Source: Psammoneis japonica
Lineage: Eukaryota
Direction of reading: 5' to 3'
DNA: 64,000 bases
NCBI GenBank assembly: GCA_008632985.1
Contig: QPGO01000160.1
Location: forward strand, 62,001-126,000
The notes under the pieces were generated by a model, which saw only the letters and a program-made list of their open reading frames with translations, had not been told where the DNA came from and searched no databases. The stretch's first letter is position 1. Every line of letters begins with the position of its first letter. This document shows, in pieces, positions 10,965 to 61,745 of the stretch. The position numbers and the translations under genes are program-made.

Positions 10965-12710
10965 AACATGTGTGGGGTGTTTTACAAAGGTGAGATGAGT
11001 GACAGCATCAAAGTTCAGATCAAAACCTTCATTTGAATGAAGAAGCTGATGGCGCAAGTGCCATGAATGACACCAGTGGACCCATTTTGGAAACTTGGCG
11101 GGCTGGGCTGCATTGGGAAATGTGCGATGTGTGTCTCACCTGAGCTGCCATGTTTGAAAACATCCAAGCAAACAAAAGCATTTCATTTTGATTGAGAAAT
11201 GGCAGCAATTCATCAACCCTTTTTAGAGTGGCCTGCCAGAGAGAGATGAAGAAAAACCCAGCAGCCAAGTCGTTTTGTTGTCAGCTGTTGCCCACAGTTT
11301 CGTTGATTTGCTGCCACACATCACACTTGGAGTGCATCAGATCAAACAGCATGGTTGCAATGAATGAGGTTGCCAATCTTGAACAAGTTGATCACCTGAT
11401 TTTCAATGCCTCCTGAAAAGTGCAGGAAGGCTGCACACAATTTTGTGTTTTCCAGAAAACTGCAACATCCAAGCAGGAGCAAGTCAAGTGAAGCGGCTCA
11501 ATTTTTGCAAGCCACTCTGGTTGGCACTGTTGTCATTGTTGCTGCATCGCAGTTGACATGCTGTTTTGTTTCTCACACTGCTGGATGTGTTGCTGTTCAC
11601 CCTGGTGCAGGTGTTCTGTGCAGATGACATCAAAGACTTTGCCAATGTGATGGCCATGACACACCAGAAGCTGAGCCAGCCAAATCAAGTGACAGCAGGT
11701 GCGTTTTGTTGGACTCAGAAAAGCAATGGCCAAATGTGTGCAGCTCACTGAAGTTGCAACAAATGGCAAAAGAGTTGCAGCAAACACAGCGCGATTGTGT
11801 GCAACAAGGCACAGAATTGTCAGCACTGTTGTGCTGGTTGATGCCGCAGCTTCGCAAACAGAAAATCCACCCTGCAACGACATGATTGCTGCTTTGCCGT
11901 CCAATTTTTTTCTGCAGGTCCTCAATTTTCACAACCACAAAGTGGTTCTCTCATTTGACTCACACACAGAATGGCAGCAAAGGAGCACCAACTTTTTCAC
12001 CAACCACCACGGTGCAGAAAGAAAGCAAGAAAGAAGGCGCAGGAAAAGGTCGCAGACTTTCGTGGGGAAAATGTCATCACAGGGATGGAATGTCATGCCA
12101 GGTGGGCAGGACAGCCATGCAAATTTTTGACTTTAAAAGCAGCTGTCTGTAGCACCTCTGAGCTGAGAGGGTGAAAGGTTGCTTTGTGCCATGATGCCTT
12201 GAGAACAAGAAGAGCACAAATTGCTTTTTCAGAATTTTCTCTGAGGGATTTTCCTTTTTCAAAGTTGGTGCCATGTTGGTTCACAAAACACAACAACTGA
12301 GTGTCCAGCACATCAACAAAATGAAAGGTGCTTGTCCAAGGCCTTGGGTGCATGTCTTTTGTGGTTCTCTTTGTCTTGAGCCGAGCAACAACAAAAGCGC
12401 GCTGCTGGCTGGCCTGGGCATCACATCTTCACAAAATGGCTGGGTTTTGACAACAGAGTGTGGTTTGCAAAATCAACAGCACTTTTTGTGCAGTCTGTCT
12501 CACAGTTTTGTGGGCTGTTGCAAAAGCCAACCACTCAAGCTGCCGAGTGCTGCAATCTCGCCATTGCTCAGCGCGCTGATCCTGGTGGAAAACCCTTCTT
12601 CACACCAGACTGTTGGGGCTTGGAGATGAGTTGATCTGTGCATCACTGATGACTCTGCAGCCCCAATGTGGGGAGACAACAAGCACCTGAATGCCTGGAA
12701 GTTGGGCCTG
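10965..12710. other. TpA- and CpG-depleted, TG/CA-rich degenerate domain (probable decayed element or gene)
   Basis: Only about 4 TpA in ~1.75 kb by eye. Six-frame ORFs are Cys/His-rich and Tyr-free; no family recognised. Confidence 0.7.
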
Positions 12711-13111
12711 TAAAAAGTTGTGCTTCAAGGCAGGGTCAGGGTCGTCGCATGCTGGTGCCATGCTTCTTGGCTAGCTGGTGGCCTGGAAGACGCCGCTTCG
12801 CTTGGTCGTTACCGGTACATACCGTAGACATTTTTTGATTTTTTCGAAGAAGTTTTCGGACAGAACTTATTACGGTAATACGTTGAAAAATGCCAAAATC
12901 GAAAAATTGACGCGAAAAACTGCGCACACTGAAAATTTCAAAAATTGGACAGCGCACGCACAATGAGGTGCGTTGTGTCGTCAGCACCACTTCCCCGATG
13001 ATTGATGCTGCATTGCTAGCTAGCTAGAGGTAACTCTCATCACTGACGACAGTTCCAATACGTTTACTGTATAACAGTGCAGTATTGCGCTCAACGAACA
13101 CAAAAAGCACA

Positions 13112-25858: not shown

Positions 25859-26241
25859 TGGCGGCAGCAGTAGTGGCAGCTCAAGTTGGGCACCGGAAGT
25901 TTGTTTAAGTCCTCCTCGAGAATCCTCCGTGCCTCACCCAGCTTTCCACACAACTGTCACGTCGGTTTGCCTACTTCGAATATACTTATTCCGTTTAACC
26001 TTTAGAGTACCGTTACATGTTTCAGCTACACGGAGTGCTGTGTAGAAGTAGTTGGGTAGGCTTTTGCTTTATAACCCTTCCAGGGGAGTTGCGCGCTATG
26101 TTCCACGTTGTCTATGAGTACACGTATTTCCCGTTCTCTAAGAGATCTAAACGTGTTCGTAACAACATGATGCACTACCACTAACACAAGGACCTCGTTC
26201 GCGCCCCTCTGAGCTTCAAAAACATGTCTTTGGCGTCACCT

Positions 26242-26372
26242 NNNNNNNNNNNNNNNNNNNNNNNNNNNNNNNNNNNNNNNNNNNNNNNNNNNNNNNNNNN
26301 NNNNNNNNNNNNNNNNNNNNNNNNNNNNNNNNNNNNNNNNNNNNNNNNNNNNNNNNNNNNNNNNNNNNNNNN
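26242..26372. other. Assembly gap (131 N)
   Basis: N run. Confidence 1.
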
Positions 26373-26395: not shown

Positions 26396-26510
26396 GGGTT
26401 GCACAATGGCGAGAACGACCCCAGCGAGGAGGGTGGACGACGAGGAGGGCTTTAGCCCGACGAGAAGGCCACACGACAAGCTGTGGGTCGTTCTCGCCAT
26501 TGTGCAACCC
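26396..26510. repeat. Perfect 26-bp inverted repeat
   Basis: GGGTTGCACAATGGCGAGAACGACCC (26396-26421) and its exact reverse complement (26485-26510). Confidence 0.95.
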
Positions 26511-27205
26511 AACGAGAAGGTCGTAACCGAGGCGCGTTGAGTGCACACGGGAGCGTATATAGGGTCTCCCGCTGTGAGGATTTTATATATATAATTCGAC
26601 CGTTAACTACTTAGGGAGAGCTTTCATGTGCAAGACTGAAGTAAAAAAGTATTGCAAAAGAGTACTTTTGAACAGCAGGTTTACTTATAGGCGACGGTTT
26701 TTGGTGCCGACTGGCAGTCGCGCAATCATTCAAAATTATTAACGTATATTCATCACAGCACCTAAAGCCGTTATTACGATCCAAATTTAAAAACGTTGAT
26801 GGGATTGATTCAAATCCACCACGTAGAATTATACATACTGGTATAGTTTAACGGCAGAATCCTCGTAGTCCAAAGAGAGACAGTAAGTTTCTACTTACAC
26901 CCCTTCTACACGATTTTTATACTGACGTACACTTGTGTACATTTTGTACCGAGAAATTCTGTGCGACTCCGAACGGTGCGCGGTCGGGTTGATGGCTCAT
27001 AATTTTTCCGGAATAGATTTGGCAACTTTCAGAAGAAGTAACCCGAAAGTTCTCTGAAAGTTGATGTGAATATAACATCACATGTCTGCACACACACATG
27101 ACCTTGAAACGCGCCAGAATTTTTACATCATCAGATTCACCACCACCCGCAAGACTTCTGCGACACCGTGCTAAAGATCGAGACTGGAGACACGGCACGG
27201 AGGAG

Positions 27206-29870
27206 ATGTCGTCTCACAAAAAAGCAGACGCAGCCACACAGCTGTCACAGAAGCCACCCGCAACAACAGAGCAGCCATGCAGCATGCCCACTTCGACCCT
27301 TGAGGTGCCAATCATGAAGGCGTCTGGGGCCCCTTCCACCACAAGTGGCGACAAGTCTGCAATCAAAACGTTTGACGCGTTTCAAGACAAAAAACAAGAC
27401 AAGCCGTTTCATGGATTGGAGGAACGTCATGTGGATGGACACCACCTCAGGACACTCATGATGCGCTTCAGCAAGTTCTTGTCAGATGAGCCCATCTGTC
27501 GGCATGACAATCTCTCCAACGGGCTGGCAGGAATTGATGGAAAGCAGCAAATTTTTGGAAAGGTCAAAGAAGCGCTGAAAATGAAGTTCCCCAAGCACCC
27601 TGACTGGGAAGACGAGGACAAGTGGCACAAGCCTCTGTTCAAAGACGTGGCAAAGGCCACTGACAAAGCCAACCTCCTCAGCATGGAGTGTTCTGACAAA
27701 AGGACTTTGCCCCTGGTTCCAAACGTGTCTTCAGAATGTGTTTGAGCCAAGCAGCGAAATGCCATTCTTACGTCGGATGGAAATTCAATGTTGAGACGTG
27801 AGAATGGTGCATTCGCAAATGACATCGAGACGTTGCTTCTTGCTCTTGTTCTGCAATGCAATTGTCCAATGATGAATGATGGCCCTCTTCAGCAGCATTG
27901 CTGGATTTTGATGGGTGCCATGGCTGCTGGACGTGGAGGGGAAGTGAGGTGTCAACGGCACGATGAATGGTTCTGGGATTTATTTTATGAGAATTTGGAA
28001 GCAACGTGGTGCGAGCCGAAGACTGTGGATTTGCATGGGCTCCTCTTCCCACCAAACAAGAAGTCTTGTCTGTTTGATCTCTACCATGCTTTTGCGTGTT
28101 TCCATTCTTGTGAGAAAGGTCTCTGTTGTCCAGATGGCATGGAGAAGGAGCTCCACAAGTGCACTTTTCCAGACTTGTGGAGCGTGAGCGACAAGCATGT
28201 TGCCGCCAAGTTGACTGCTGTTGTTCGAAACAAGGTCAACCCGGTTCTACAGAATGATTGTTCTTCAAAGTCTGTTCGAGTTGGTGTGGCTACATTCTTG
28301 AATTCGCATCGAGGAGTGTCAGTTGAAGAAGTGGACGCTCGAGTTGGATGGGCGCCCGGAGCTGCCAATGGCAAGACACACAAACGAATTGCACTGCAGC
28401 TTGCTCTTCCAGCAGCAAACGCAATGATGGGCTGGGATGATGCCACTGGCAAAAAATTTGCGCCGAATCTTGAATGTCTTGGTGGCCACGCGCAAGATGA
28501 TGTCGAACGGCTCATTGAAAAACTGCATGTGACATCTGACACCCTCAAACAATTTCCACCAGGCGGGGAGCTTCGTCCGTTCTTGCGCTCCTGCACGGCT
28601 GCCATGATTCAGCATCATGCTGAAGTTGCAAAAGAACTCTGCCAGAGCCATCAGATTGTGCGCACCTTGGAGCGTGCTGCGAAGGAAGCGAAGATTCGTG
28701 ATGGCGATGCCACTGACACATCACAAGTTCTTCGAATCTGGGGATTGAGAACAGATGCAAGCTTTCGAGACCGCAATCCAGACCTGTCGAGCGAGATGAA
28801 CCTTGCTGCACAACTGAAACAGCAGAATGAACTGTTGACACGTGTGTTGTTGGCACATGACGCTCAACGTGCCGAGATTGCAGATCAGTCTCAGACCCTT
28901 CGTAACTTGGAGATGGCTCAGCTTGAGGCCAACCGGTCCAGCAGGAAAAGGCCCATTGAACTCCTGTCATCAGACGAGGAGGAAGGTTGCATGATGGATT
29001 TGGTGGAGGGGACAAAATCCAATCAAGACGACATGATCAACAGTGACGTCATTGATGCAAACGTCGCCTCCACTCCAAACGGTGCGGCTGCCAACTCTGT
29101 GAGAACACCAGATGCTGCTGATGACGCGCCGGCTGCTTCTCGACCTCGCATTGATTCTGACGAGTCAGCGGCTGCGACTGAGCCTGTGGCGGCCTCGGCG
29201 CCAAAGCCAAAACCTTGCATTGCCGCAATGCTGCTCTCAACACGGTTTGCAAGTGCTGAGTCTTCCAAGAAGAAGAAGAAAAAGAAGCTGACACTGCAGG
29301 AGAAAGTGGATGGCTTGGTGAACAGCACAGGCGCAGGAGTGTCTTTGCATGTGTTGCTCACTTGGTTCAAGCAGCATGGACACCTTTCATCGCCGTCAAA
29401 GGAGCGGCTTTTGCAGCTGCGGTTCCCGAACAAGGAGGCAGAGCCTCAGAAATTTAAAGCCGCCACGGAGCTTCTGGAACACATTGTGACTGATGACCAG
29501 TGGCACACGATCCAACTTCATGACGACAAGTCCTTGGCTTTTCACAATGTTTGTCATGCCATGCAAAATGCATGCCTGGATGCGATGAGGAAGATGGAAG
29601 TAGACGCCGGCATGAAAAAGCCACTGGAGAACAAGAAGAAGGAACAAACTCAGCCTCACTTTGTAGGTCTTGGTCTTTGAGTTACAACATACAAGAAAAA
29701 GCAGAATGTGTCATCCATCGGCGAGAAGCAAACGAGCGCCTTGGCAGGATTTGTGAAGAAGGTTGCATCCAAAGCCACCGGCACTAGTCCCAAAAAACCC
29801 GTGAACCCACATGCAAAGAAGCAGGCCAAAGTAAAATGCATGTCAAGTTATTGTGTGTTACAGTGCGAAT
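27206..29870 (+). pseudogene. Tyrosine recombinase (Crypton-like), copy 1, with in-frame TGA stops at 27743 and 29678
   Basis: ORFs 27098.. and 27788.. share a frame. Motifs GRGGEV (RxxE), SSKSVRVG (HxxR box) and RVGW, with His (CAC 28379-28381) where the catalytic Tyr is expected. Start position approximate. Confidence 0.65.
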
Positions 29871-30010
29871 AGAAGCTTGCACTGTAGAAACATCTGTTTC
29901 AAATTTAGCACCGTGCAACTGCTGTGCGTCCGGTTGATTCGGACGAAGCAAGTGTGCTTTTCTCTCTGACGACTCCAAAACGTGCCAATCATCAAGATGC
30001 AAGTAGACCA
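29830..30010 (-). pseudogene. Degenerate duplicate of the RusA 3' end
   Basis: Aligns with ~30175-30340 (CGTCCGGT.GATTCGGACGAAGCAAG, TGCCAATCATC). Confidence 0.7.
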
Positions 30011-30237
30011 AGGTAAAACACATGCACAGTGAAAAAAACTGTGCACCTCAAATTTGGTTTAGTGCAACGACCAGTCGATTCAGATGAACAAGTTGAAAGT
30101 GCTTTTCTCGCTAACAACTGTGCAACTTGTCTTCATCACGACACAAGTGGGCCAAAGTAAAATGCAACTGGGAGAAGTAAAATGCACATCAAGTGATCAG
30201 GCGCTGCAGCACATTCACAGAACCATCTGTTTCTGTT

Positions 30238-30876
30238 TCAAATTTCATTCAATGCAACGACTGTTCGTCCGGTAGATTCGGACGAAGCAAGCACCTTTTT
30301 CGCCGACAACTCTGATGCTTGCCAATCATCTTGATACAATGTTGTGTTCAAGCTGTCCAAAACAAACTTGCAGAGATTGTCAATGTCTCCTGCATCCTTG
30401 AGACTCTTCCCAGGAAAAGCAAATTCAATCCGAGCCTTCAACAAGACACCGCCACGGAACTTTGGTGCTGAATCTAGTCTGGATCGGCAGAGAGCTGATG
30501 CCACGCTTGCAAACTCTTTCTCATCAGCTTGGTTTGGATTGCAAACGTTTCCATTCCACCCACGCTTTGGTCTTGACTTTGGTGTTGGCTTTCCGACAAC
30601 GTCAAATTCAATGGAAGATCCGGTGCATGAAAATGGGGGCATGTTCGAGACGGAGAATTTGGGCGATCGGATCTTTCGAGGACGCCCTCGTTTCTTCTTC
30701 CTTGATGGTTCACCTTTGCCAGCACTGCCAAATCTTGATGATGCCTGCAGGTTTGGAGCAACAGCCACGCTCTCAAAGTCTTTTCCACCTTCGTGGTCGC
30801 TTGCGCTGTCTGCAACCATTGCGTCGTCGGCAGTTCCTCCTTCAAAACTTCGCTTCTTGACCATTCTGCCATCCAT
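30238..30876 (-). CDS. AT-hook plus RusA-family Holliday junction endonuclease
   Basis: KKKRGRPRK AT-hook; GKPTPKSRPK; DIDNLCKFVLDSLN; LYQDDWQ; GRTVV. The RusA DxDNxxK...D...DD catalytic pattern is present. Confidence 0.85.
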   Translation of the reverse strand: MDGRMVKKRSFEGGTADDAMVADSASDHEGGKDFESVAVAPNLQASSRFGSAGKGEPSRKKKRGRPRKIRSPKFSVSNMPPFSCTGSSIEFDVVGKPTPKSRPKRGWNGNVCNPNQADEKEFASVASALCRSRLDSAPKFRGGVLLKARIEFAFPGKSLKDAGDIDNLCKFVLDSLNTTLYQDDWQASELSAKKVLASSESTGRTVVALNEI

Positions 30877-31239
30877 TGCACTTTGGGCATTCAGGAAACT
30901 TCTCTACAGTCCTCCTCAGTGCAGCAGGAGAAAAGGCTTTCCGTGTGAGGATTCGCGTGCGATGGCAACATGTTTCCATCGCTCATCGCGTGAGCTTTCG
31001 TGTTTCGATTGATTTTTGATTTTTTTCAAATTTCAATTTTTCCGGAATAGATTTGGCAACTTTCAGAAGAAGCAACCCGAAAGTTCTCTGAAAGTTGATG
31101 TGAACATAACATCACATGTCTGCACACACACATGACCTTGAAACGCGCCAGAATTTTTACATCATCAGATTCACCACCACCCGCAAGACTTCTGCGACAC
31201 CGTGCAAAAGATCGAGACTAGAGACACGGCACGGAGGAG

Positions 31240-32560
31240 ATGTCGTCTCACAAAAAAGCAGACGCAGCCACACAGCTGTCACAGAAGCCACCCGCAACAA
31301 CAGAGCAGCCGTGCAGCATGCCCACTTCGACCCTTGAGGTGCCAATCATGAAGGCGTCTAGGGCCCCTTCCACCACAAGTGGCGACAAGTCTGCAATCAA
31401 AACGTTTGACGCGTTTCAAGACAAAAAACAAGACAAGCCGTTTCATGGATTGGAGGAACGTCATGTGGATGGACACCACCTCAGGACACTCATGATGCGC
31501 TTCAGCAAGTTCTTGTCAGATGAGCCCATCTGTCGGCATGACAATCCCTCCAACGGGCTAGCAGGAATTGATGGAAAGCAGCGAATTTTTGGAAAGGTCA
31601 AAGAAGCACTGAAAATGAAGTTCCCCAAGCACCCTGACTGGGAAGACGAGGACAAGTGGCACAAGCCTCTGTTCAAAGACGTGGCAAAGGCCGCTGACAA
31701 AGCCAACCTCCTTGGCATGGAGTGTTCTGACAAAAGGACTTTGCCCCTGGTTCCAAACGTGTCTTCAGAATGTGTTTGAGCCAAGCAGCGAAATGCCATT
31801 CTTACGTCGGATGGAAATTCAATGTTGAGACGTGAGAATGGTGCACTCGCAAACGACATCGAGACGCTGCTTCTTGCTCTTGTTCTGCAATGCAATTGTC
31901 CAATGATGAATGATGGCCCTCTTCAGCAGCATTGCTGGATTTTGATGGGTGCCATGGCTGCTGGATGTGGAGGGGAAGTGAGGTGTCAACGGCACAATGA
32001 ATGGTTCTGGGATTCATTTTATGAGAATTTGGAAGCAACGTGGTGCGAGCCGAAGACTGTGGATTTGCATGGGCTCCTCTTCCCACCAAACAAGAAGTCT
32101 TGTCTATTTGATCTCTACCATGCTTTTGTGTGTTTCCATTCTTGTGAGAAAGGTCTCTGTCGTCCAGACGGCATGGAGAAGGAGCTCCACAAGTGTACTT
32201 TTCCAGACTTGTGGAGCGTGAGCGACAAGCATGTTGCCGCTAAGTTGACTGCTGTTGTTCGAAACAAGGTCAACCCGGTTCTACAGAATGATTGTTCTTC
32301 AAAGTCTGTTCGAGTTGGTGTGGCTACATTCTTGAATTCGCATCGAGGAGTGTCAGTTGAAGAAGCGGACGCTCGAGTTGGATGGGCGCCCGGAGCTGCC
32401 AATGGCAAGACACACAAACGAATTGCACCGCAGCTTGCTCTTCCAGCAGCAAACGCAATGATGGGCTGGGATGATGCCACCGGCAAAAAATTTGCGCCGA
32501 ATCTTGAATGTCTTGGTGGCCACGCGCAAGATGATGTCGAACGGCTCATTGAAAAACTGC
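31240..32560 (+). pseudogene. Tyrosine recombinase copy 2, truncated
   Basis: Near-identical to copy 1 including the internal TGA; homology stops abruptly after GAAAAACTGC at 32560. Confidence 0.7.
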
Positions 32561-33912
32561 GGCCGATCGACAACCACCGCTCCCTCCGACAATGGCGCTT
32601 TTGGCCGTTTTGACCGGTGCGACACCGCCTCCCGACCCCCACCTTGCTTGACAGTGTTGTGAGCCATTGGGTCGTGCCATGTGAGTGAGCCCTGGCTCTG
32701 GAATGGGTCAGAATGACTCAAAATGTGGTGAGTTCTGATTCTCGTGGAATCGTGCGTCTTTTTCCCCGTTCTCGTTCGCAATGGCGCTCACCTTGAACCT
32801 CCTTGTCCCGTGTCTTGATGTGTGGGAATCGAAGATGGGGATGTCGAAGTCCACGGGTCTACGCCGTCGCCGTCACCATTTTTGGCTCCGTCACCGTTCC
32901 ACCATGGCTTGCTGCTTCTGTCCCGGTCCATGCCGTACCACCATGGCGCTGCCTCCGTTCTCCAAGCTTCTGCCACGATTTGTATGGACCGGACCAGTCA
33001 CTCGATCCCAAGCTCCGACTTTCTACCATTGCTCATGCCGATTTGCAGCCTGCTTTTGTCGTCCTGCTCCGTGGAACCACCAGACTGCCTCTCTTCCATC
33101 TGTCCTCCCTGCCCGCCGTTGACGATCCAGGCACCCCAAGTTTTGACCCTACTGGTGAGTTTACATTGGTCGTTTGCTCGTTGTTGCTTTGTATTTGTAG
33201 AAAAGTATGTTCTTACCTCCTTGTGTTGTTCCATTTCACCGCAGATGTGGTCATTTTGCAGGCGCAGGTGCCGTGCTTCTCTGTGCAAGTTTTTGTGCTC
33301 ACCAATGTTGTCTTGCTTTGTTCTTTTTATTGAAGATATGGTACTAACTCAAATAGATCTTTTCTCTCTTTTGCGCCCTCTTGCAACATCGTTGGATTGC
33401 TGTCTTTGCGTCTCTCTCCGGCACTTGCATCATTGTCGGTCTCTTCGCTCGTGCTTCGCTCGCGTCGTCTCTTCTCCACGCTCGCTTCCCCTATTAATTG
33501 TACGTACGTAATTTCTACATAAATGCCTCATATATAGAGTACCAAATTACATAGTAACGGCCGTTAACGGTTTTTAGAATTACTTAGGCCCACCCACACT
33601 CGAGCAGTGGGAGTCCATGCAGTTTTTCCCGGTGTTGTCTGTCCCTCCATCCCTCCTGCCTACGCCTTTGACAGAGTCATTGAAGCCTTTTCTGCTTTCC
33701 ACAAGCCTAGAAGAAAGGGCAATTGAAAATACTTATAGGGAAAATAGCAATAAGTAATTGACGGTCACAGTCTTAGCTGCTTTCGGTCTAAGACAAATAA
33801 CTGTTTCACGATACCGTTCCCTCATTTTTTTTGTCTTGTTTCTTCTCGTTCACTAGAATCTCTGAAAGAACCGACACCTACCAATCGCTTCATCAAAAGG
33901 ATTGATGGAAAG

Positions 33913-37667: not shown

Positions 37668-38528
37668 ATGGCAACCATGGAGACCGACAATGATAGCAAT
37701 AGAGAGCCTTGGTACTCTTCCATGGCAGGCAGAGTGCCGATCCCTTCAGATACAACGTCTGCCAACAGCGAACCCAACCAGAATTCCCTGTTTGTGGGAT
37801 CGCTCTCGGCGGCAGCAAATGAACTCTTTTTGCGCGAGAAGAACATCATGCACATTCTGACAGTAGCCAAAGGCCTGTACGTTGAGATCCCCCAGGATAA
37901 GGACGGAAAATCGCGACAGCACAAGATAGTGGCTTGTCACGACCATCCCATGGCCGACATGCTCCAAGTTCTCCCCGAATGCCTCGACTTTGTCCAAGAG
38001 GGTTTGGCACACGGTGGTGTTTTGGTGCATTGCGCCTCGGGTGTGAGCCGATCTGTGACGGTCTGCGCCGCCTTTCTCATGATACATCATCAAACGTCGG
38101 CAAAGGATGCTCTCGGCTTGATGTGCTCGACAAGAAAATGTGCGAACCCCAACATTGGATTTCGGCCGCAGCTAGAGTTGCTGGAGCGGCATGGCGGAGA
38201 CATTGCTGCAGCCCAAGCCACTTGGTCGCAACAGCATTCCTTTCTTGTGCAAGATACACAACGTCAACGAGAAGTCGTCAATCAGCTCCACGTGCGTGTG
38301 GATGCCTTGGAAGAGATCGTCGCCGCCAAGATGAGCAAAGAAGTCTGTGGCGAAACGAAGGCTTCGTTCATGGATGACATGGTCCAACTTGTGAGACTCC
38401 AAAGCGAACTGGACTCATGTTTGCCAGCAGAGGGCGATGGGCTCGTGGATCCACCCTCCAAAATGATGCGCAAGTCAGCTGCTGCAAAGGTTGAGTGATT
38501 GCTCATTTCGCTGGAGAAGAAGGAATGA
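37668..38528 (+). CDS. Dual-specificity protein phosphatase, 3' half mutated, premature TGA at 38496
   Basis: LFVGS, VLVHCASGVSRS (HCxxGxSRS) and ANPNIGF motifs. The frame continues LLISLEKKE* after the TGA (probable CGA->TGA). Confidence 0.85.
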
Positions 38529-38639
38529 AGCATTCGTTGAATGCACCAATGCACCAGTTTCACACTGTAGACCTCTTCGTAGTAGAAAGATGCATTGGAC
38601 AGACATTTTTATCAAACTTCTTACTACCCTCATCACTGA

Positions 38640-41322
38640 CAGGGGTGGGGGCAGCTGTGCTTTTTGATGATTTGGAGGGCTTCATCTTTGCAACATTTTG
38701 TGTGATGACAAACTTCCACACAAATCAGCAAATGCCCAATTGCAGTCCAGGTGGCAGTTCACTTGTGTCAGGACAAATGGACTCCAGCTGGCAAGTTGTC
38801 TTCCCATGCTGTGGCACATTGATTTCTTGCTGATTCTTCAAAATCTTGGCTCTTGGTCTCTTGGTCTGATGTGCATGGTGCCCTGGCAGTCTGGTGGACC
38901 AATCGCTGCTTGCTGGGGTGTTGCTGGTCATGATGCACAGGTGAGATAAAACAGCAGACACAATTTCTTTGCCTCCTGCAGTCAACATGAAAAATTGCCA
39001 AGCTGCTGCAATCTGCATTTTCAGTTTGGGCATGGTGTTTTTGTGCATCTTTGTGGTCCAGAAAACCCAACTTGATGGCAAGGTGTCCTCATTCCTTGTT
39101 GGCTGAAGCACATTTCAAAAAGCAATCTCTCCCATCCTTTCTTTCAAACACTCCACCAAAATAAAGCATGCAGCAATCTCTGCACAAAACAAGAAGCAGT
39201 TGGTGTTTTGGTTGTGGCTCATCTCATGCTGTTGAGGTGCAAAGGTGTGCATTTTTGCATGGACACCAACTGCCATGGTGCTTCAGCTGGTTGCCTTTGC
39301 TGCTGTTGCGCAAGCTTCCCCACACAGAATCTCCAAGCAAGTTTTGTGTGTTTTTGGGAAGACAAAACTTGGTCACATGCTTGGGCTGACAAGAGGCAGT
39401 GGCGCAAGCACCGGCTGAGTTGCACTTGTGATTTGTTTGTGACCACCCCTTTCATCCTTTGGTGGTGAGGTGAGTTTGGTGATGGGACCCTCGCAGCTGG
39501 TCTCAGCCAAAGTCAGGAGCTGTGGCTGGCTTTGGCAATCTTTTGCACCTCCGCTCTGCCACTGTGCCTGCTCACAATTTGTCAAAGCAGTCTTTGGTGG
39601 AGACATGTCTTTGACAAACTTCAACAAGAATTTGCACACTTGCTTGAGATTGCAAGTGTTGAAACACTTTGCAAGACATTTCTGCTGCTCATGCACTTGT
39701 TGGAGCACAAAAAAGAGCATTGGAAACACTTTATGAGATTGTGCTTGGTTGCAAGCATCACTTGAGCAAACTGAAAATCCCTGACAAATTGGCCAAAAAA
39801 TGAAGAGTTGATGGATCATGCTGCACATGGAGCATCATGTGTGCTCACTTCTGGAAGCCAAAAAACAGCCTCCTTGCATTCACCTTCATTGCTTTGTTTG
39901 TTGCTTTTCCACCTGGTTCTTCAAGAAACAGCGCAACATCTCCCCAAATTGGTGCACAAAACAGGGGGCTTTTGTCCCGCCACCAGTGGGCTGCCATCAG
40001 CTGTTTTCCAGAGCTGCCAAGCACATTTGGCATTTTGCATGACTGGTGTTGGAAGTTTGGCAACTCAACAAGCAAGCTTGTTTCTTGCTCAGCATCAACA
40101 TTGCAGCCCAGAGTGTGCAGGCAACAGTGGCCACTTCTGCTTTTGTTTTTGTCAGGAGCATCTTTGTCATTGTCAAATGGCTGGGGCATTGATGCAACCC
40201 AGTTTTTGCAAGGCCAACATGGGCCAGCAGATGACAAAACTCTACATTCAGTTTTCTGCTGAATGATGATTCTTGTTGCAGCAGAAAAAGAGTGTGGTGC
40301 AACCCCATTGTCAACAATCTGCAATTGTGCTGCCCAAAGTGGAGGGGGGGGGCATCAAAGAGTGCAGCACGTGCTTCTTTCTAATGCACATCAAATGACA
40401 GAGATTCTCCTCCCTGGTCTTTGGCTGAAGTTGCTGCATTGGCACAGTGTTTGCTGACTGACTTGACAAAACAAAAGCAGCAGTGCATGTTTGATGTGTC
40501 AAGCAAATCAACACAATAAAATGTGGCTTGTTTTTCCCATTGTGTGCATTTCTGTTGCATGGCAACATGTTTTAAAATGGCAAAAAGATTGCAAATCATG
40601 CCACTTTTTTGGCAAACAAAGCATTTTCCACACTCTGTTTTAACAACAAGACCAGCTTTTGTTTGTTGCTCCACCATGCATTCTTTGACACAATTGCGCT
40701 GTTCGTTGAAGAAATCCCGCTGGCTGCGGCACTGCTCTTGTGCGTGCCAGAGTGGTGGGGCACGCAATCTTTGTAAAAAAGAAAAAAAGAGCTGCCTGCC
40801 ACCAACCATAAAGAAACAACATAGACATGGTGGTGCGAGCCATCGTCAGTGCTGCTGATGCATGGTGTGCTTTTTGGGTGTCTTTGTTTTGTGATCCCCA
40901 AAAAGCACACCATCAAAAGGAAGTGCAGGCCCAGAGCACCACACTCTGTGGCAGCACTGCATTGTGTGGTTTGTTGAAGAAATCCCATTGCACTGCTCTT
41001 GTGTGTGCCAGAGTGGCAGCGAATGTGACATTCGCAGATGGAAAATGAGCCAGCCGTTGTTCTCAACCCCTTGTCTGAAAAGCACAAAATCCAAAACAAA
41101 CAAAAAGCCACCACAGGAGCCACTTCAAGGCATGTGATTAAAAACCCTGTGCACACTGTGGAGGTGGAATTTTCTGAAAATGGTTGTTGATGGAGACGAT
41201 GCGAGACAAGGGTGAAAATGGCACAGAAGAGAGGTGCACAATTCGAGATTTCCTGTGCGTGAAAATCCACCTCACCAGTCAGAAATTGACTGCCACGTCA
41301 TCCACAGTTTCGCAGAACCCTG
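38640..41322 (-). mobile_element. Decayed hAT-like DNA transposon (tentative)
   Basis: Imperfect terminal IRs CAGGGGTGGGGGCAGCTGTG / CAGGGTTCTGCGAAACTGTG (14/20). Minus-strand relics PCAA*SIN (cf. CxxHxxNL), LLTLAETS (cf. TRW) and SWVFW..MPKL (cf. dimerisation domain). TSD not convincing. Strongly TpA/CpG-depleted. Confidence 0.5.
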
Positions 41323-45773: not shown

Positions 45774-46792
45774 ACCAGTCTTGACGCTTCTGATAAAGGG
45801 AAAAATCACACCACCACTTCTTGATTTCCATACAATAAGTTTTGCTTACTACACGATGCATTTTTCTTCGTCTACATTTTGCTTAAAAACGAGTGGAGCC
45901 CAAGATCTAAAACAGCATTTCGACCGCTCGATTTGTCGGTCGCAATTGCCACTCGTTTTTGTCTCCTTCGATTCTGAAATTCGGAGCAAAATACGCACCC
46001 GTTTCTTGAAAATCAAAATTTAGAACAAGGAGAATGACATAGACATGGCTTGCCATGATTGTGCAGTGTTTGTGATGAAGTTTCTTGATCGGTCTTGCTT
46101 TTCCAAATCAATAGTCTCTATTGTTTGCAATGTTCGTACCGGGATGGGCATCGTGATTTAGTGCAAAGCTGCCACATTAGCAACCGCAATCATTTGTCAA
46201 GCAATTTGCTACTTGATTCGTTTCGTTTCGTCAAGAGTTCAGGATCGACAAGCTCGATGGTGGGCCATTTTGTAACGCTAGAATGTTACGAGCTACACAG
46301 TCGTCATCGCGCAACTACAAGCAACATCAGTGCAAAAACAAGATGAGGTTGGACGAAACGAAAAACAATCCCCGATTTAGTTTTGAAGCCCCTGAAACCA
46401 AAACCATTGCCCCGTTTGCGCGTTCAGCTCATCGCCGTGCACCATGGGTGCCGTCGGTTTGTCCTCTCTCTCTCTCTCTCTCTAACGAACGAACGATCAA
46501 ACTACTCTATACTCTAGAGGCCAGATAGAGTACGGTAGCTTAGTGATGAAACCAGTGCTCATGTGTCTAGGATTTTTGATTCGTGGGTTGGTGGCGGCAT
46601 TTGGAATTTGGAATTTTCAGGGTGAGTCCAAATTGAAAATCAAAATGAATCTCGCCGTTTCTCCGCGCGTTCCCCGGCCCGCGACCGCGACCCACGATCC
46701 AGATCTGGATCGTTGAAGTCCCTACCGGTACATCATCATCATTGCGAATTTTCCTGTCAACATCAACATCACTTTGAACCCCCTTGCCCATC

Positions 46793-47551
46793 ATGGCAAC
46801 CACTCGCGACGAAACGAAGCCCTGCTGCCAGGGGTCAAGCCCTACAGACTATGTGTCCAAGGGTGAAGAATCTTTGCTTGGTGATATGAAAGTCTACACG
46901 GTTGGTCCTTCTTCTTCGGACAACAAGAAACCAATTGGGATTCTGGTATCTTACGATATCTTTGGCTTTGACATGACCGGAACTCGTCAGTTTTGCGATA
47001 AACTTGCGGAGACTACAGGATATACCGTTGTGTTCGGTGACTACTTTCGTGGGAATCCATGGCGCGAAGTCCAGTGGCCACTCCAAGGTGAAAAGGACCA
47101 AGTTTCCTTTATGGACTGGGTCAATTCGTTTTCGGACGAGCACTTGAGTGGGGACATTACAGTGCTTCGAAACTACCTACGAGAAAAGGGTATTGTCAAG
47201 ATTGGAGTCTTGGGATTCTGCTATGGTGGCAAGGTAACGGTATTGGCCGCCAAAATGACGGGACAGTTTCAAGCTGCCGCTACCATGCACGGTGCCTTTA
47301 TCAAAGATGACGACGCAAAGGATATCGACTGCCCGCTATTAATGGTGGATGCGGGCAATGACCCGGATCGCACAGAGCTCATCAAGGTCATGAAGGCCAA
47401 GGACGTTGCAACGTTGTGCGATTTTGTGCGGTTTCCCGACATGGAGCACGGTTGGACAAACCGCGGCGATCAGTCGATCCCAGAAGTGAAGAAGGCCATG
47501 GATGAGGCTTTCGACCGAGCTGTCAAATTCTTTCAGGACTGCCTTGAGTGA
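46793..47551 (+). CDS. Dienelactone hydrolase family protein
   Basis: DIFG, GFCYGG nucleophile elbow, AGND and HGWTNR (Cys-Asp-His triad). Confidence 0.92.
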   Translation: MATTRDETKPCCQGSSPTDYVSKGEESLLGDMKVYTVGPSSSDNKKPIGILVSYDIFGFDMTGTRQFCDKLAETTGYTVVFGDYFRGNPWREVQWPLQGEKDQVSFMDWVNSFSDEHLSGDITVLRNYLREKGIVKIGVLGFCYGGKVTVLAAKMTGQFQAAATMHGAFIKDDDAKDIDCPLLMVDAGNDPDRTELIKVMKAKDVATLCDFVRFPDMEHGWTNRGDQSIPEVKKAMDEAFDRAVKFFQDCLE

Positions 47552-48133: not shown

Positions 48134-49234
48134 TTGTTGGCGGAACACCATTTGCACAGCTGGCGTGCTCGTTGCGAGGAAGCCGCAGTAGATTGGAAAG
48201 TGGTCTGCGCAACTGCCAAGCCCCACACTGGCAACCACTTCTTCCATCCGAAGGATGCTGCGAAGCTAGCTGCTCGAGTACCATCGGACTTAAAGAAACG
48301 AAACGAGCTCGAACTACTGTATGAAATCATGGGGCATCCAACAGATCCAGGATCGAAAAAGATGAAACCAAACACATCCCTTGAGCCTGTAGAAGTTACA
48401 GGTGTTGACTGCACATCTCAGTCTTCCCGAATCGCGGTTTGTCCAGACCGGAGCGACCGCCAAGCATTGAGCCGTACAGCTCGCAAATGAGTCGGCGAAG
48501 TGTCACAGCAAGATGCAGAATGACTCGCATTGCCAGCATCTGTACTCTGATGATGATGATCTGTCAGAGCGTGTCCGAGTTGTGGCGATTAAAGACCCAA
48601 ACCACCCGGCCCATCTGTTTGCATTGCCCAACTGTGTTGCACCCGGGGAGTTGTTGCCAACAGGAGCTTTAAGAGAGGCGAGGTGGTTTTTTGCCATGGA
48701 GGTGAAACAAGAGTCTTGACCTTTCATCATTTGAATGCAATGGACCACCAATCCACATTTGTGGGAAGCACAGCATTGGCAGAATGATCAACGATCCTTG
48801 TTCTGTTGGAAGCTCATGGAAAAGGAAAGTGAATTTAATGATGATGCCAGATTGGGACAATGCTTCTAAAACTCCTCAGATTCTCCTCATGGCAACTCAG
48901 GGCATTGGCAAAGGAGAAGAGCTGTTCTGTGACTGTGGGGCCCCCACATTGGAAAGTTTGCTGGAAACAAATGATGCTGGCACATGCCACATTCACTCCT
49001 CAAACAACTGCCAAATGCAAAGCCATGAAAAAGGCTCTTTGGGGAGGAGAGTTGGACGAAAGCTCTGTCAGCTCAGACAGCAACAACACTGATGACTCTG
49101 CCTGCACAGAAAGCAGTGACACCAATGAGGACGAGGCGGAGGAACACAATCGTGATGAGCAGCTGTGCAATGAAATGCCAGTTGCAGCTCTTGCTTGCCC
49201 ATCAACTTCCTGTGATTGGAACAATGAGGGGTGA
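48134..49234 (+). pseudogene. SET-domain pseudogene
   Basis: IGRMINDP and LMATQGIGKGEELFCDCG.. followed by frameshifted PHW (cf. ATRDIxxGEELxYDYGxxYW); stops and frameshifts. Confidence 0.7.
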
Positions 49235-49395
49235 GTTGGGCTCCCAACACAAATCTCATTGTGAATGACCAGTCCACATTGCAGCCGCACATGCACAAAC
49301 CACAAAGTTGCAGCTCTTGCTTGCCCATCGACTTCCTGTGATTGGAGCCGATGAGGGGTGAGTTTGGCTCTCAACACAAATCGTGTTGTGGATTG
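49181..49395. repeat. Imperfect direct repeat, period ~126 bp
   Basis: GTTGCAGCTCTTGCTTGCCCATC.ACTTCCTGTGATTGGA...GAGGGGTGAGTT at 49181 and 49307. Confidence 0.85.
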
Positions 49396-49859
49396 CCAAC
49401 AACCTTTGTGTGATTTGAGTTCACAATGCTTGACAAGCTGCCATTGCAAAGGTGAGAAAGGTGTCATTGACTCAAGTCTGTCAAAATGGCCTGAATGGGC
49501 TTGGCTCTAGAATGCAGTCTTGCCTCAAGAATGTGTCAAACTGCTCTGGTCTCAAAGAAATGAGTGCTCAGATTTGATGGACTGCATTCACAATCTAATG
49601 CTCTGCTCTGTCTGAATTTTCCACCATGTGTTTCTAAATGTTTGCAGTTGAAATTGCTGCAATTGACCACATGGTGCTGCATCATGGCCAACAACAAAAC
49701 CAATGAACAAGACAATTTGTTCAACTCAGGACATTTGTCATTTGAAGAGAGGACTGGAGCCACCAGCCAGCAGGTGGCTTGAATTGTTCCCTGCCAGCCC
49801 AAGGTTGCAAACAAGGGTGTGGCTCCAGACAACTTGTGGTTGTCAGCCCCCTTTCTGCC

Positions 49860-50652
49860 ATGGCACTCACTTGCAACAAAACAAAGCCCTGCTGCCAGAG
49901 GTCAAGCCCAACAGACCATGTTTCTGAGGGCAAAGAATCCATGCTTGGTGACATGAAAGTCTGCATGGGTGGTCCTTTTCTTGTTTTTCTTCAGATGATG
50001 ACATGAAAACAGCTGGGGCTCTGGCATCTTGCAGCATCTTTTGCTTTGACATGGCCAGAACTTGTCAATTTTGTGGTGAGCTTGCGGAAACGGCAGCACA
50101 CACCATTGCATTTGGTGACTGCTTTCATGGGAACCCATGGCACAAAGTCCAGTGGCCACTCACCAAGGTGAAAAGGACCAAGTTTCCTTTGTGGACTGGG
50201 TCAATTTGGTTTTGCACAAGCATGTGAGTGGAGACATTGCAGCACTTCACAGCCACCTGTGAGAAAAGGGCATTGTCAAAACTGGAGGTCTTTGGGCTCT
50301 GTCTTGATGGCGCAAGAAGAAAGTGATGGCATTGGCTGCCAAAGTGATGGGACAGTTTCAAGCTGCTGCTGCTGCTGCTGCCATGCATGGCACCTTTGTA
50401 AAAGACAACAATGCAAAGGACATCAGCTGCCCACTGCCAATGGCGTGTGTGGGCAATGGCCCAGATTGCACAGAGCTCATCAAGGTCATGGAAGCCAAGG
50501 ATGTTGGAACCTTGCATGACTTTGTGAATTTTTCCAACATGGAGCACGGTTGGACAAACTGCAGCAATCAGTTGACCCCAGAAGCAAAAAAGGCCATGAA
50601 CAAGGCTTTTGACCAAGCTGTTGAATTTTGTTGGGGCTGCCTGGAGTCATGA
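49860..50652 (+). pseudogene. Hypermutated duplicate of the dienelactone hydrolase gene
   Basis: Colinear with 46793-47551; frameshifts; differences dominated by TA->TG/CA and CG->TG/CA. Confidence 0.92.
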
Positions 50653-51260
50653 AAGAAGAGAGTGCTGGATGATCATGTTGCATTCAAAGCTGCATGCAAG
50701 CACCTGCCTGCATCTCTTTTTGCATCAATCAAGAACCTTTGTGTCACTCCACAGTCACTTGAGTAAATTCCTGAAAACTGCTTTGCAAATTTGACTTGTG
50801 TGTTCTTTGCTTGTCAACCACTTTGATGATTCAATGGAGAGATGTGATTCTGAGCAGCAAATTGGCGGGAGACAGGGGTGAATGACATGCCGAGAAAAGG
50901 CTTCAGGATGAACGGCAAAACAACAACGCCAGGTTGAGCACCAAGTCTGAGACCTTGAAGACACCCCCCCCCAGCAAAAACATTGAAGAGAAACCTTGGT
51001 GACCAGCAGGAATGTTCTCTGTGGAGACAAAGTGCAGTTGTGTGATTTTGTCAGGCAAGTTGATTCATTTTCTCACTGTCAAAAAATTAAAATGTTAGAA
51101 AGCAGCAGCTGGACAAGACTTGTTTGGCATTGATGCCACTCCAAAGTGGCATGACATCCACATTTGGGCACAGCAGATGCGCGCGCAGCACTTCGAATGT
51201 AAAAACTCCATTCCAAAATCTCAAACTCTGTCTGGCCAGTGGCTGGAGCTGTTTTCTCTT
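49860..51260 (+). repeat. Segmental duplicate of ~46790-48130 (gene plus downstream region)
   Basis: Shared blocks GGCAAAACAACAACGCCAGGTTG, TTAGAAAGCAGCAGC and CTTCGAATGTAAAAACTCCATTC. Confidence 0.9.
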
Positions 51261-51569
51261 CTCTTTTTTTTCCCAAAGCACACATCTCCCGCCCAGAGTC
51301 CATTTTGAATTCTGACTTCAAAACCTTCAACTGCCAGAGCTGCTGGCTGCTCTCTCTCTGCTCTAGCCAGCAGTGGGGCCAGCTGAACTCCAGAGGCAAC
51401 TCCCTGAACTCCAGAGGTGACTCTGGTTGGAGGAGGGCGGGGGAGAGAGAAGAGAGGAGCAAGAAGTGGTGACACACAGACACTGCAATCCCCGTGCCAA
51501 GTGCAAGCAAACTGGGGGATTCCCATCTGTGAAGTGACAATTTGGTGTGAAGTGATCACGCAGAATTGC

Positions 51570-60935: not shown

Positions 60936-60973
60936 TGTTAAGGACGCAGTATTATCCGATCCATCACACCACA

Positions 60974-61745
60974 ATGGCGTCGCTGTTGTTGTTGTTGTTG
61001 TTGTTGCTCTTCTTGTTGTTGGTGTCATCCCACGCATTTGTTTCAAATCTTTCTTATAACAAACAATATTGCCATTCTTTAAAAGACAAGTGGGATGATT
61101 TAGTGGATAACGATGAAAATGATGAACCGCCGCTCGTCTTCAGGACATGCGGTACATTCCCCGCAACGTGATGCGTCAACACCAAACCTTTTGTGATTTG
61201 CGTGACGCCGGTGCTGATGTGAACGATGTCTATGTCTATGAACCCAATTCTCAAGATACCTTTTGGTTTGTGGGCAAGGTGGCGTATGTTTCTGGATTGA
61301 CGGGACAAGAAGCAGCTTGGCGTCAAGTCGATATGATATCTCAACATGCGGCGCAATTGCGTCCCATTGAACTCTATCCACACCGACATGAATTACAACT
61401 GTGGTTGGCACCGGGCAATTCCGAAATGGACGTGGCCTACAATCGACCTCAACTGTGTTTGAACCAGTGGAAAAAATGATGGACTCTACAAAGAACATCA
61501 AAAAGAGTTGGATTGGTTTTTCGGGAGAAGTCTATCAAGGTGGAGAAGAGGGATTTCGCACTTGGCGCAATGTAGACACGGGAAAAGCCGCACGACCCGA
61601 GGTGCAATCGCCCAATCAAGAAGAATTGCGAGCGCCAACGCAAGAGGAAATGGAACAAATTCAAACCAAGCTGCAGGATCAAGATTTGAATGAAATTTAT
61701 GAGGAACAGGAACGGAGGCGAAAAGCTCAACAGCAGCAAGAGTAG
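60974..61745 (+). CDS. Conserved hypothetical plastid-targeted protein, frameshifts near 61140 and 61450
   Basis: Signal peptide ending SSHA/F; FWFVGKVA..QHAAQLRP.EL..APGNSEMDVAYN; acidic tail. Assembled from three overlapping ORFs. Confidence 0.6.

Follow-up and report, generated by a model that had tools for sequence, protein, structure and literature searches.

Within the 64,000-nucleotide stretch of DNA analysed here (the window), it is highly probable that a dead tandem element lies in an island where the host has turned TpA and CpG into TpG or CpA, and that the 28 differences between its copies are what each has undergone since they separated. The 5′ part of this two-gene mobile element would stand twice in tandem, in the following layout:

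27001..31034, + strand: one full unit of the two-gene mobile element, 4034 bp (period 4034), with a recombinase-like gene on the + strand and a RusA-like gene on the − strand
27065..29680, + strand: recombinase-like ORF of about 870 codons with an in-frame TGA at 27743-27745; 339 relatives, best 38% identity
30238..30903, − strand: RusA-like Holliday-junction resolvase ORF (P0002), 221 aa, Pfam RusA PF05866
27001..28526, + strand: copy 1, the 5′ part of the element, which takes in the beginning of the recombinase-like ORF (self-BLASTN and base-by-base list)
31035..32560, + strand: copy 2, which begins right behind the unit end and breaks off at 32560
26242..26372: assembly gap of 131 N, 629 bp upstream of copy 1

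A self-comparison of the window by BLASTN aligns 27001-28526 with 31035-32560 over 1526 bp at 98.165% identity and a period of 4034, with 28 mismatches and no gaps. The base-by-base list reproduces exactly the nine TA versus TG/CA differences counted in the initial annotation: TA is confined to copy 1 at 27039, 27071 and 27981 and to copy 2 at 31219, 31359, 31559, 32105, 32196 and 32241, the other copy having TG or CA (4:5 overall). That leaves 19 differing bases. Thirteen of them are single CG versus TG/CA sites, the class said to make up most of the remainder. Three are other transitions, two form a CA versus TG double site at 27679-80, and one, TA in copy 1 versus AA in copy 2 at 27172, is the sole transversion of the pair. 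Transitions account for 27 of the 28 differences. Copy 1 has 12 TpA and 62 CpG, and copy 2 has 14 and 67. The region 27788-29680, described as rich in CpG with about ten TpA, contains 86 CpG (O/E 0.71) and 9 TpA (O/E 0.08).

Transitions were counted by the following base without assuming a direction. Pyrimidines in the pair differ at 9 of 297 positions before A and 13 of 401 before G, versus 1 of 364 before C and 2 of 421 before T, so that pyrimidine-purine (YpR) and pyrimidine-pyrimidine (YpY) steps are clearly separated (Fisher p=1.6e-5). At the background rate of 3/785, 1.1 TA-type differences are expected versus nine seen (P(>=9)=3e-6). If the differences are read as losses, copy 1 lost six TpA, nine CpG and its own half of the double site, and copy 2 lost three TpA, four CpG and the other half; the ratio between the copies is 2:1 in both arms (6:3 for TpA, 10:5 for CpG). 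Under this loss model 9 of 17 TpA sites changed versus 14 of 72 CpG sites (Fisher p=0.011), in agreement with the earlier claim that TpA loss outpaces CpG decay. The TpA rate would be about 2.7 times that of CpG per site and roughly 70 times that of other contexts per base, and the CpG rate in this young pair is calculated at about 28 times background per base. About eight of the nine TA-type differences would be TpA losses, with about one background gain expected. Both copies share only 8 TpA where roughly 60-100 are expected in 1526 bp, and most of the TpA loss is therefore older than the duplication.

The YpR bias is absent from seven paralogue pairs outside the islands (~73-89% identity, 299-796 bp), which carry 7-104 transversions each versus one in the repeat pair. 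Immediately to the left of the element, a repeat of high depth (26400-27000) is unpurged, with a TpA O/E of about 1.0. Both observations bear on duplication as a possible trigger.

Five sharply bounded islands, one of them containing the element, have a TpA O/E of about 0-0.2, low CpG and a CA/TG O/E of 1.4-2.1:

11001..12500: second purged island, TpA O/E 0.00-0.06, CpG 0.24-0.29
27001..33000: island with the element, TpA O/E 0.03-0.32 per 500 bp, CpG 0.53-0.98, CA/TG mostly 1.3-1.7
38001..41000: third purged island, TpA 0.03-0.20, CpG 0.04-0.32 from 38501 on
48501..54000: fourth purged island, containing the broken hydrolase copy, TpA 0.00-0.15, CpG 0.00-0.74
59501..61000: fifth purged island, TpA 0.03-0.13, CpG 0.23-0.62

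Together the islands hold 100 TpA in 17,000 bp versus 1,881 in the remaining window, and their GC content is 0.44-0.57 per 500 bp. The left edge of the element island coincides with the start of the element at 27001. A Pfam scan of 24 island ORFs, the seven of the third island included, gave no match above the cut-off. The context of surviving TpA differs mildly, TTAA being 2.8-fold over-represented and ATAT present at 0.14-fold.

Are the two copies a true tandem duplication? They might instead be alleles, or the assembler might have joined two family members that lie apart in the genome, a reading that we regard as unlikely but the strongest of the alternatives. It draws on the N gap upstream of copy 1 and on the multi-copy nature of the family, since 713 contigs of run X1 align to the stretch at 85-100% identity. 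Three listed X1 contigs reach up to 31036 and stop, and two others run on from there into unrelated sequence; in other copies, therefore, the unit ends at this point. None of the listed contig pieces bridges 31034/31035, but with 16 of 751 pieces listed a missing bridge proves nothing. Against an artificial join, the N run is not between the copies, and copy 2 continues gap-free into different sequence. Even if the join were artificial, the copies would be two lineages of one element and the mutational reading would be unchanged. The X1 alignments show a transition-dominated spectrum with several TG versus CA double differences, which fits many element copies decaying independently. Among the 40 of 520 differing places listed, a third copy has the CpG state at 28127 and 28135, and at 28072 it has C, unlike either copy.

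The direction of change can be read from a gene and its island copy elsewhere in the window:

46778..47551, + strand: intact dienelactone-hydrolase gene of ordinary composition, the internal direction reference (Pfam DLH 3e-25)
49859..50998, + strand: broken, hypermutated hydrolase copy in the fourth island, 75.5% identity to the intact gene

The island copy keeps none of the 50 TA steps of the gene, 22 having become TG and 20 CA, and it keeps 4 of 57 CG steps, with 26 now CA and 22 TG. Transitions at T before A and C before G reach 0.45 per base, versus 0.10-0.14 in all other contexts. All seven Tyr codons of the gene are altered in the copy (three to CAY, three to TGY and one to CTT). Orthologues of 247-251 aa, with 49-59% identity, were available for comparison, and four of the seven codons encode Tyr in all four orthologue sequences compared. 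At the level of sequence comparison, these orthologues confirm Tyr (TAY) as the ancestral state.

The opposite polarity would make TpA the derived state at the nine sites, through C>T deamination at CpA/TpG (RIP-like or by non-CpG methylation) together with CpG decay. A single chemistry would then cover all 27 transitions of the pair. This reading also finds some support at 27981 (TTA versus TCA), where the commonest residue among relatives is Pro (8/23) and a CCA>TCA>TTA path, that is, a TpA gain, would fit. We nevertheless consider it quite improbable. In the hydrolase pair C before A changes at the background rate (0.11), so that CpA/TpG steps are not elevated, against 0.45 for T before A. 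The islands are almost without TpA, the opposite of what CpA>TpA change would leave, and Tyr codons are lost rather than gained. Derived TpA would also mean that the copy with more CpG loss shows fewer TpA gains.

Individual sites of the pair add to this picture mainly for CpG. At five amino-acid differences of CpG type, the state with CpG agrees with the residue prevailing among relatives or lies nearer to it (Arg in 23/23, Arg in 22/23, Asp in 12/23, Pro in 12/23, and Ala in 6 versus Gly in 16). At 27549 (CAA versus CGA) relatives favour Gln (10/23), against an ancestral CpG there. The relatives' amino acids at two non-synonymous TA-type sites are uninformative about polarity. An outgroup copy for polarising was found neither by word-based protein search nor by a metagenome scan with window protein P0001. 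A scan with a smaller alignment of relatives returned four loci with 25-38% identity to the window protein (tblastn), informative for composition and not for site polarity. We therefore infer the direction at the nine sites from other loci. TpA loss in the copies, as the initial annotation proposed, is supported by the hydrolase pair, the orthologue Tyr codons, the Tyr depletion of the element and the TpA content of its relatives.

A read-out artefact, in which modified TA and CG in silenced DNA are misread as TG/CA, appears very improbable. One-strand misreading of a modified palindrome would give half TG and half CA and never change both bases, which is what is seen. Yet the hydrolase copy is truly old: its alignment contains 147 gap columns, and background change amounts to about 12%. 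The 131-N gap suggests a short-read scaffold, and to our knowledge short-read chemistry should read bases with the usual methylation marks (5mC, 6mA) correctly. The X1 contigs also agree with the assembly, 168 of 713 at 99% or more, and a 257-nt contig over 28435-28691 has one difference; this is a weak check, as X1 is possibly the source data.

The hardest reading to credit is that origin or selection made this family poor in TpA, and that neutral variation of the usual kind accounts for the nine sites: the shared ancestor of the copies was indeed already TpA-poor, but relatives have ordinary TpA and Tyr contents, a host-gene copy in another island shows the same composition, and the nine differences far exceed the background expectation. 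The DNA of four environmental relatives has a TpA O/E of 0.52-0.58, and the family is therefore not TpA-free in itself. Tyr makes up 0.3-0.5% of the element proteins versus a median of 2.7% in 150 relatives. At 13 columns where relatives have a Tyr majority, the element has His five times, Cys twice, Tyr once and other residues five times.

By its Atlas feature neighbours (NDC10_II, Phage_integrase and DUF3504, 0.92-0.96), which are the evidence for this assignment, the recombinase-like protein is probably a Crypton-like tyrosine recombinase. None of 15 relatives matches Pfam at E<=0.01, one of 27 has a weak Phage_integrase match (E=0.072), and the profile searched against PDB sequences returned coiled-coil noise only. 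An alignment of 26 relatives with the query shows no variation at R199 and R314 and almost none at Y347, and it contains the motifs GRGGE, SSKSxRxG and GGW...Y. From motif spacing we take these three residues to be catalytic. At a conserved Tyr column the element has CAC (His, 28379-28381), and His would presumably replace the catalytic Tyr. Both copies carry this codon and the in-frame TGA; at the position of the TGA, Arg is found in 10 of 23 relatives. Like Cryptons, the element has a large recombinase-like protein with an apparent Arg...Arg...Trp...Tyr spacing, Atlas neighbours with NDC10_II, DUF3504 or Phage_integrase, and no reverse transcriptase. Unlike them, it has no Pfam integrase match and carries a convergent RusA-like resolvase gene, which Cryptons are not known to have. 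P0002 matches PF05866 with E=3.4e-10 and 41 bits (cut-off 22.8) over profile positions 2-115 of 124. The convergent two-gene layout recurs on two environmental contigs (L001 and L002), where RusA-like homologues with 45% identity occupy the matching position and orientation.

How might the host produce this pattern? The host would convert both palindromic pyrimidine-purine steps to TpG/CpA within sharply bounded islands, TpA by A:T>G:C and CpG by G:C>A:T transitions, and the 28 differences would have arisen in each copy after separation. Several known systems offer comparisons. RIP in ascomycetes changes C:G to T:A mainly at CpA; TpA and stop codons become more frequent and GC falls. The islands resemble it in that repeated or foreign DNA is mutated to saturation, by transitions only, at particular dinucleotides and within sharp borders, which we read as genome defence. 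Here, however, TpA disappears, the changes end at CpA/TpG, and TAA/TAG stops are lost. The RIP signature of CpA change with rising TpA and falling GC is not seen: C before A changes at 0.11, the background rate, TpA O/E is 0-0.2, and GC remains at 0.44-0.57 per 500 bp. Decay of methylated CpG in vertebrate and plant transposons likewise gives a CG>TG/CA excess in silenced elements. It leaves TpA alone, whereas TpA is also hit here, and the CpG rate in the young pair exceeds the roughly 10-15 fold of vertebrates. ADAR/ADAT-type A-to-I deamination, with its 5′ U preference, acts on RNA. It shares the A>G change beside a 5′ T, but here two DNA copies diverge in place and the strands are equal (TG:CA = 22:20 and 4:5).

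A literature search for TpA-losing mutation of repeats found a single study, which describes TpA hypermutation of integrated NCLDV and virophage DNA in Bigelowiella natans (Mettrop et al., bioRxiv 10.64898/2026.01.13.699255, 14 Apr 2026). As far as the accessible part of this preprint goes, it reports real-time TpA>TpG/CpA change in integrated foreign DNA, mutation accumulation without G:C>A:T change (230 of 231 hypermutations at TpA) and an enrichment of transposon domains among depleted genes, with no mention of CpG. This also supports the initial annotation in holding that TpA loss is not a by-product of CpG decay. Among literature titles we noticed none on methylation or transposons in B. 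natans, nor on an element combining a recombinase with RusA. The window resembles B. natans, as portrayed there, in TpA>TpG/CpA change on both strands, apparently limited to foreign or repetitive regions, and 13 of 64 1-kb windows pass the double (5%) cut-off given in the preprint. It differs in that the islands also lose CpG to TpG/CpA (48/57 in the gene copy, 14/72 in the pair), the process hits a recombinase-type transposon and a copy of a host gene, TpA is depleted much more strongly (O/E 0-0.2 versus 0.45 in the B. natans NCLDV region as given there), and the genes look intron-poor. The most likely mechanism would be adenine deamination in 5′-TA-3′ on either DNA strand, as that preprint proposes for B. 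natans. Deamination of methylated CpG cytosines would run alongside it, and both activities would target silenced foreign or repeated DNA. Because a CpG arm is absent from the phenomenon as published in the part accessible, the two arms may be unrelated processes with common targets.

In copy 1, TpA and CpG events share a strand pattern: on the + strand the changes hit purines before 27700 and pyrimidines after 27800. Copy 2 shows no such coordination, nor does the old hydrolase gene pair, for which a runs test gives p about 0.8. The pattern might hint at one strand-wise, pyrimidine- or purine-centred activity for both changes, and not at an adenine deaminase acting beside 5mC decay.

DNA-level rewriting of foreign TpA to TpG/CpA was first reported in April 2026, in one preprint. 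The locus confirms this independently and from sequence alone, and the intact gene near its purged copy is a clean internal control. It adds that CpG is lost alongside TpA, that a transposon and the copy of a captured host gene are among the targets, and how fast TpA and CpG change relative to each other. For proteins, the consequences are the replacement of Tyr by His or Cys and the erasure of TAA/TAG stops; this erasure accounts for the large number of long, spurious ORFs in the islands. For annotation, homology searches will fail in purged islands, and too many ORFs will be called there. TpA purging would be present in a second organism if the window came from a species other than B. natans. 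We offer, as a doubtful generalisation, that TpA purging extends beyond one chlorarachniophyte and may be one arm of a two-armed defence in at least one further protist, in which both TpA and CpG of silenced DNA would be converted to TpG/CpA.

Alignment of the window with itself yields one strong repeat with a period of 4034, 27001-28526 (copy 1) and 31035-32560 (copy 2). The two segments are 1526 bp long and align ungapped at 98.165% identity, differing at 28 bases. TpA is confined to copy 1 at 27039, 27071 and 27981 and to copy 2 at 31219, 31359, 31559, 32105, 32196 and 32241; our mismatch listing thus reproduces every coordinate of the initial annotation. CG stands against TG or CA at 13 further sites, and CA against TG at one (27679-80). 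Three differences are other transitions, and an additional copy 1-only TpA at 27172, AA in copy 2, is the sole transversion. With no direction assumed, transitions affect 9 of 297 pyrimidines before A, 13 of 401 before G, 1 of 364 before C and 2 of 421 before T. The background rate predicts 1.1 TA-type differences, versus nine observed (P(≥9) = 3e-6), confirming that these differences are real and beyond chance. Of the nine sites, roughly one could reflect a gain at the background rate. In seven paralogue pairs located outside the TpA-purged stretches described below (islands), the YpR-type bias is absent and each pair has 7-104 transversions, compared with one in the repeat pair.

Each copy corresponds to the 5' part of a unit, complete at 27001-31034, which contains two convergent genes:

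27065-29680, plus strand: recombinase-like ORF, interrupted in both copies by TGA at 27743-27745
30238-30903, minus strand: RusA-like resolvase ORF (Pfam E = 3.4e-10)

An exhaustive profile-free search identified 339 relatives of the recombinase-like protein, typically 770-830 aa long, the best with 38% identity. None of 15 relatives has a Pfam match at E ≤ 0.01, and Phage_integrase matches one of 27 relatives (E = 0.072); no curated model identifies a recombinase. In the alignment of the relatives, the motifs GRGGE, SSKSxRxG and GGW...Y hold two Arg found in every sequence and a Tyr found in nearly all; from the spacing of these motifs, we take these three to be the putative catalytic residues. 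Neighbouring Atlas clusters carry NDC10_II, Phage_integrase and DUF3504 (scores 0.92-0.96). Together, the putative catalytic motif and these neighbours indicate that the protein is probably a Crypton-like tyrosine recombinase. Two environmental contigs carry the same convergent gene pair (L001:298-3275 and L002:231-2590; RusA part 45% identical) in a conserved unit of ~3.5-4 kb, indicating that the 4034-bp unit is a real two-gene element. The copy in this window is dead: besides the TGA, the conserved Tyr column, putatively catalytic, has the codon CAC (His) in both copies. The TGA column is Arg in 10 of 23 relatives, which fits CGA>TGA. Tyr makes up 0.3-0.5% of the element proteins (median across 150 relatives, 2.7%), and the 13 Tyr-majority columns contain His (five), Cys (two), Tyr (one) or other residues (five). 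Consistent with the initial description of about ten TpA and many CpG in 27788-29680, we count 9 TpA (observed/expected ratio, O/E, 0.08) and 86 CpG (O/E 0.71). The DNA of four relatives has a TpA O/E of 0.52-0.58; absence of TpA is therefore not intrinsic to the family, which answers the objection that its consensus might itself lack TpA.

The initial annotation had proposed that TpA loss is recent or ongoing, independent in each copy and faster than CpG decay. If TA and CG are taken as ancestral at differing sites (the loss model), 17 TpA (18 including the transversion site) and 72 CpG are reconstructed for the ancestor, and 8 and 58 of these, respectively, are common to both copies. Copy 1 would have lost 6 TpA and 10 CpG and copy 2 3 TpA and 5 CpG, a 2:1 ratio for both steps. 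Under this model, 9 of 17 TpA sites differ versus 14 of 72 CpG sites (Fisher p = 0.011), in agreement with the faster loss of TpA. At five CpG-type amino-acid differences, the CpG-bearing state encodes the majority or nearer residue in the relatives (Arg 23/23, Arg 22/23, Asp 12/23, Pro 12/23, and Ala where the relatives have Gly 16/Ala 6); one site is opposite, the relatives favoring Gln (10/23). At the two non-synonymous TA-type sites the relatives give no polarity, and at one such site their commonest residue is Pro, compatible with a TpA gain.

From the sequencing run X1, 713 contigs align to 26400-33200 with 85-100% identity. Their differences are mainly transitions and include several TG-versus-CA double differences, as expected if one ancestral palindromic step decayed independently in different copies. 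We consider it improbable that the two copies are a mis-join or an allele artefact. The junction 31034/31035 is spanned by no contig among 16 of 751 pieces shown, and an N gap lies at 26242-26372, but the mutational reading is unaffected even with a mis-join or alleles. Some X1 contigs connect 26917 with 32559 (shorter side 73 nt), and one of depth 548 has the first 10 letters of the element immediately before 32559 (27010/32559); these joins point to other genomic copies, either flanks without the insert or a short element derivative.

In a 500-bp profile, the repeat pair lies within one of five islands with sharp borders: 11001-12500, 27001-33000 (the pair), 38001-41000, 48501-54000 and 59501-61000. 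Inside, TpA O/E is mostly 0.00-0.2, CpA and TpG O/E mostly rise to 1.4-2.1, and CpG O/E is reduced to 0.00-0.3 in three islands and 0.5-0.98 around the recombinase/RusA element; outside, TpA and CpG O/E are ~0.6 and ~1.0. The 17,000 island bp contain 100 TpA and the remaining window 1,881. The left border of the element island coincides with the first repeat base: TpA is dense through 27000 and sparse from 27001. The adjoining 26400-27000 has an X1 contig depth of 1400-2100 yet is unpurged (TpA O/E ~1.0, CpG 1.1-1.4), so high apparent copy number alone is insufficient for purging.

The islands are rich in long ORFs overlapping across frames (35 of at least 80 aa in 26400-33500), as expected because TAA and TAG are erased, and are thus a pitfall for gene callers. 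One island ORF, 48706-49092, has a weak SET-domain match under the cut-off (E = 0.003) and could be a further piece of a purged host gene. Tandem and dispersed arrays at 19500-21500, 24100-25900 and 34200-36500, with units of 159-285 bp that are 60-94% alike, belong to a family of Cys-rich repeat proteins that has no Pfam match and ordinary dinucleotide content. Among 39 listed ORFs of at least 200 aa, one per locus, 22 are on the plus strand. The genes of the window look intron-poor; for example, a complete DUF1365 domain lies within the single ORF 13034-14233.

The direction of change is revealed by a host gene and its copy inside an island:

46778-47551: intact dienelactone-hydrolase gene (Pfam DLH 3e-25; orthologues 247-251 aa, 49-59% identity)
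49859-50998: broken hydrolase copy within the island 48501-54000, 75.5% identical to the gene

The island copy retains none of the gene's 50 aligned TpA (22 are now TG and 20 CA) and only 4 of its 57 CpG (26 CA, 22 TG); retention is 81% for CpA and 75% for TpG. T before A and C before G each show 0.45 transitions per pyrimidine, and all other contexts, C before A among them, 0.10-0.14. At the gene's seven Tyr codons the island copy has CAY (three), TGY (three) and CTT (one); four of these positions encode Tyr in each of the four orthologues from other organisms. This contrast indicates that TpA is destroyed in islands of this genome, with no rise in CpA>TpA. Misreading of modified bases could imitate the half-TG, half-CA outcome, but such an artefact is unlikely: the hydrolase copy is truly old, and the X1 contigs agree with the window, a weak check since X1 may be the source data. 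A gain of TpA by a RIP-like process is contradicted by the near absence of TpA from the islands, the background rate of C before A in the hydrolase pair, and the loss of Tyr, with His or Cys at 7 of 13 Tyr-majority columns of the element. Loss of TpA in the repeat pair is thus indirectly supported by the hydrolase copy, the Tyr footprint and the TpA content of the relatives.

TG and CA outcomes are balanced between strands (22:20 for the hydrolase pair, 4:5 for the young repeat pair). This equality, and the divergence of two DNA copies in place, argue for a process acting on DNA rather than on a single-stranded RNA copy; the immunity of the CpA/TpG end state suggests that recognition requires a palindromic step. 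Tentatively, the simplest chemistry would be deamination of the adenine of 5'-TA-3', then read as G, alongside deamination of methylated C in CpG. Other chemistries may apply instead, for example one in which the T of TpA carries a mutagenic modification. Separately, the 16 loss-model events of copy 1 (27186-28447) follow the plus-strand purine/pyrimidine order RRRRRRR Y R YYYYYYY: 7 of 7 left of 27700 are purine changes and 8 of 9 right of 27800 pyrimidine changes, with TpA and CpG events intermixed on either side (post hoc runs test, p = 0.0085). This ordering is absent from copy 2 and from the old hydrolase pair.

A literature search for repeat mutation that loses TpA returned a single preprint, on Bigelowiella natans, posted on bioRxiv on 14 April 2026 (10.64898/2026.01.13.699255). 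There, two integrated viral regions mutate ~1000-fold above the genome in mutation-accumulation lines, with 230 of 231 changes being A>G/T>C, all placed by the authors at TpA; the hypermutation is restricted to some lines. The preprint also describes 124 genomic clusters depleted in TpA, enriched in CpA+TpG and enriched for transposon domains, and proposes an ADAT2-like adenine deaminase working on DNA (10.64898/2026.01.13.699255). By the two 5% cut-offs described there, 13 of the 64 1-kb windows pass here. The process seen here is of the same kind. It differs in direction from fungal RIP, which converts CpA to TpA, a change not raised in these islands, where TpA is destroyed. CpG has no mention in the available preprint text, whereas the islands lose CpG too; nor does that text describe this kind of transposon, purging of a copied host gene, a Tyr footprint or per-site relative rates. 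The differences between the two copies are confirmed and their interpretation as TpA loss is supported. The phenomenon is already known from that one recent preprint, and this Psammoneis japonica locus is a new, unusually clean instance of it, with a CpG arm added.
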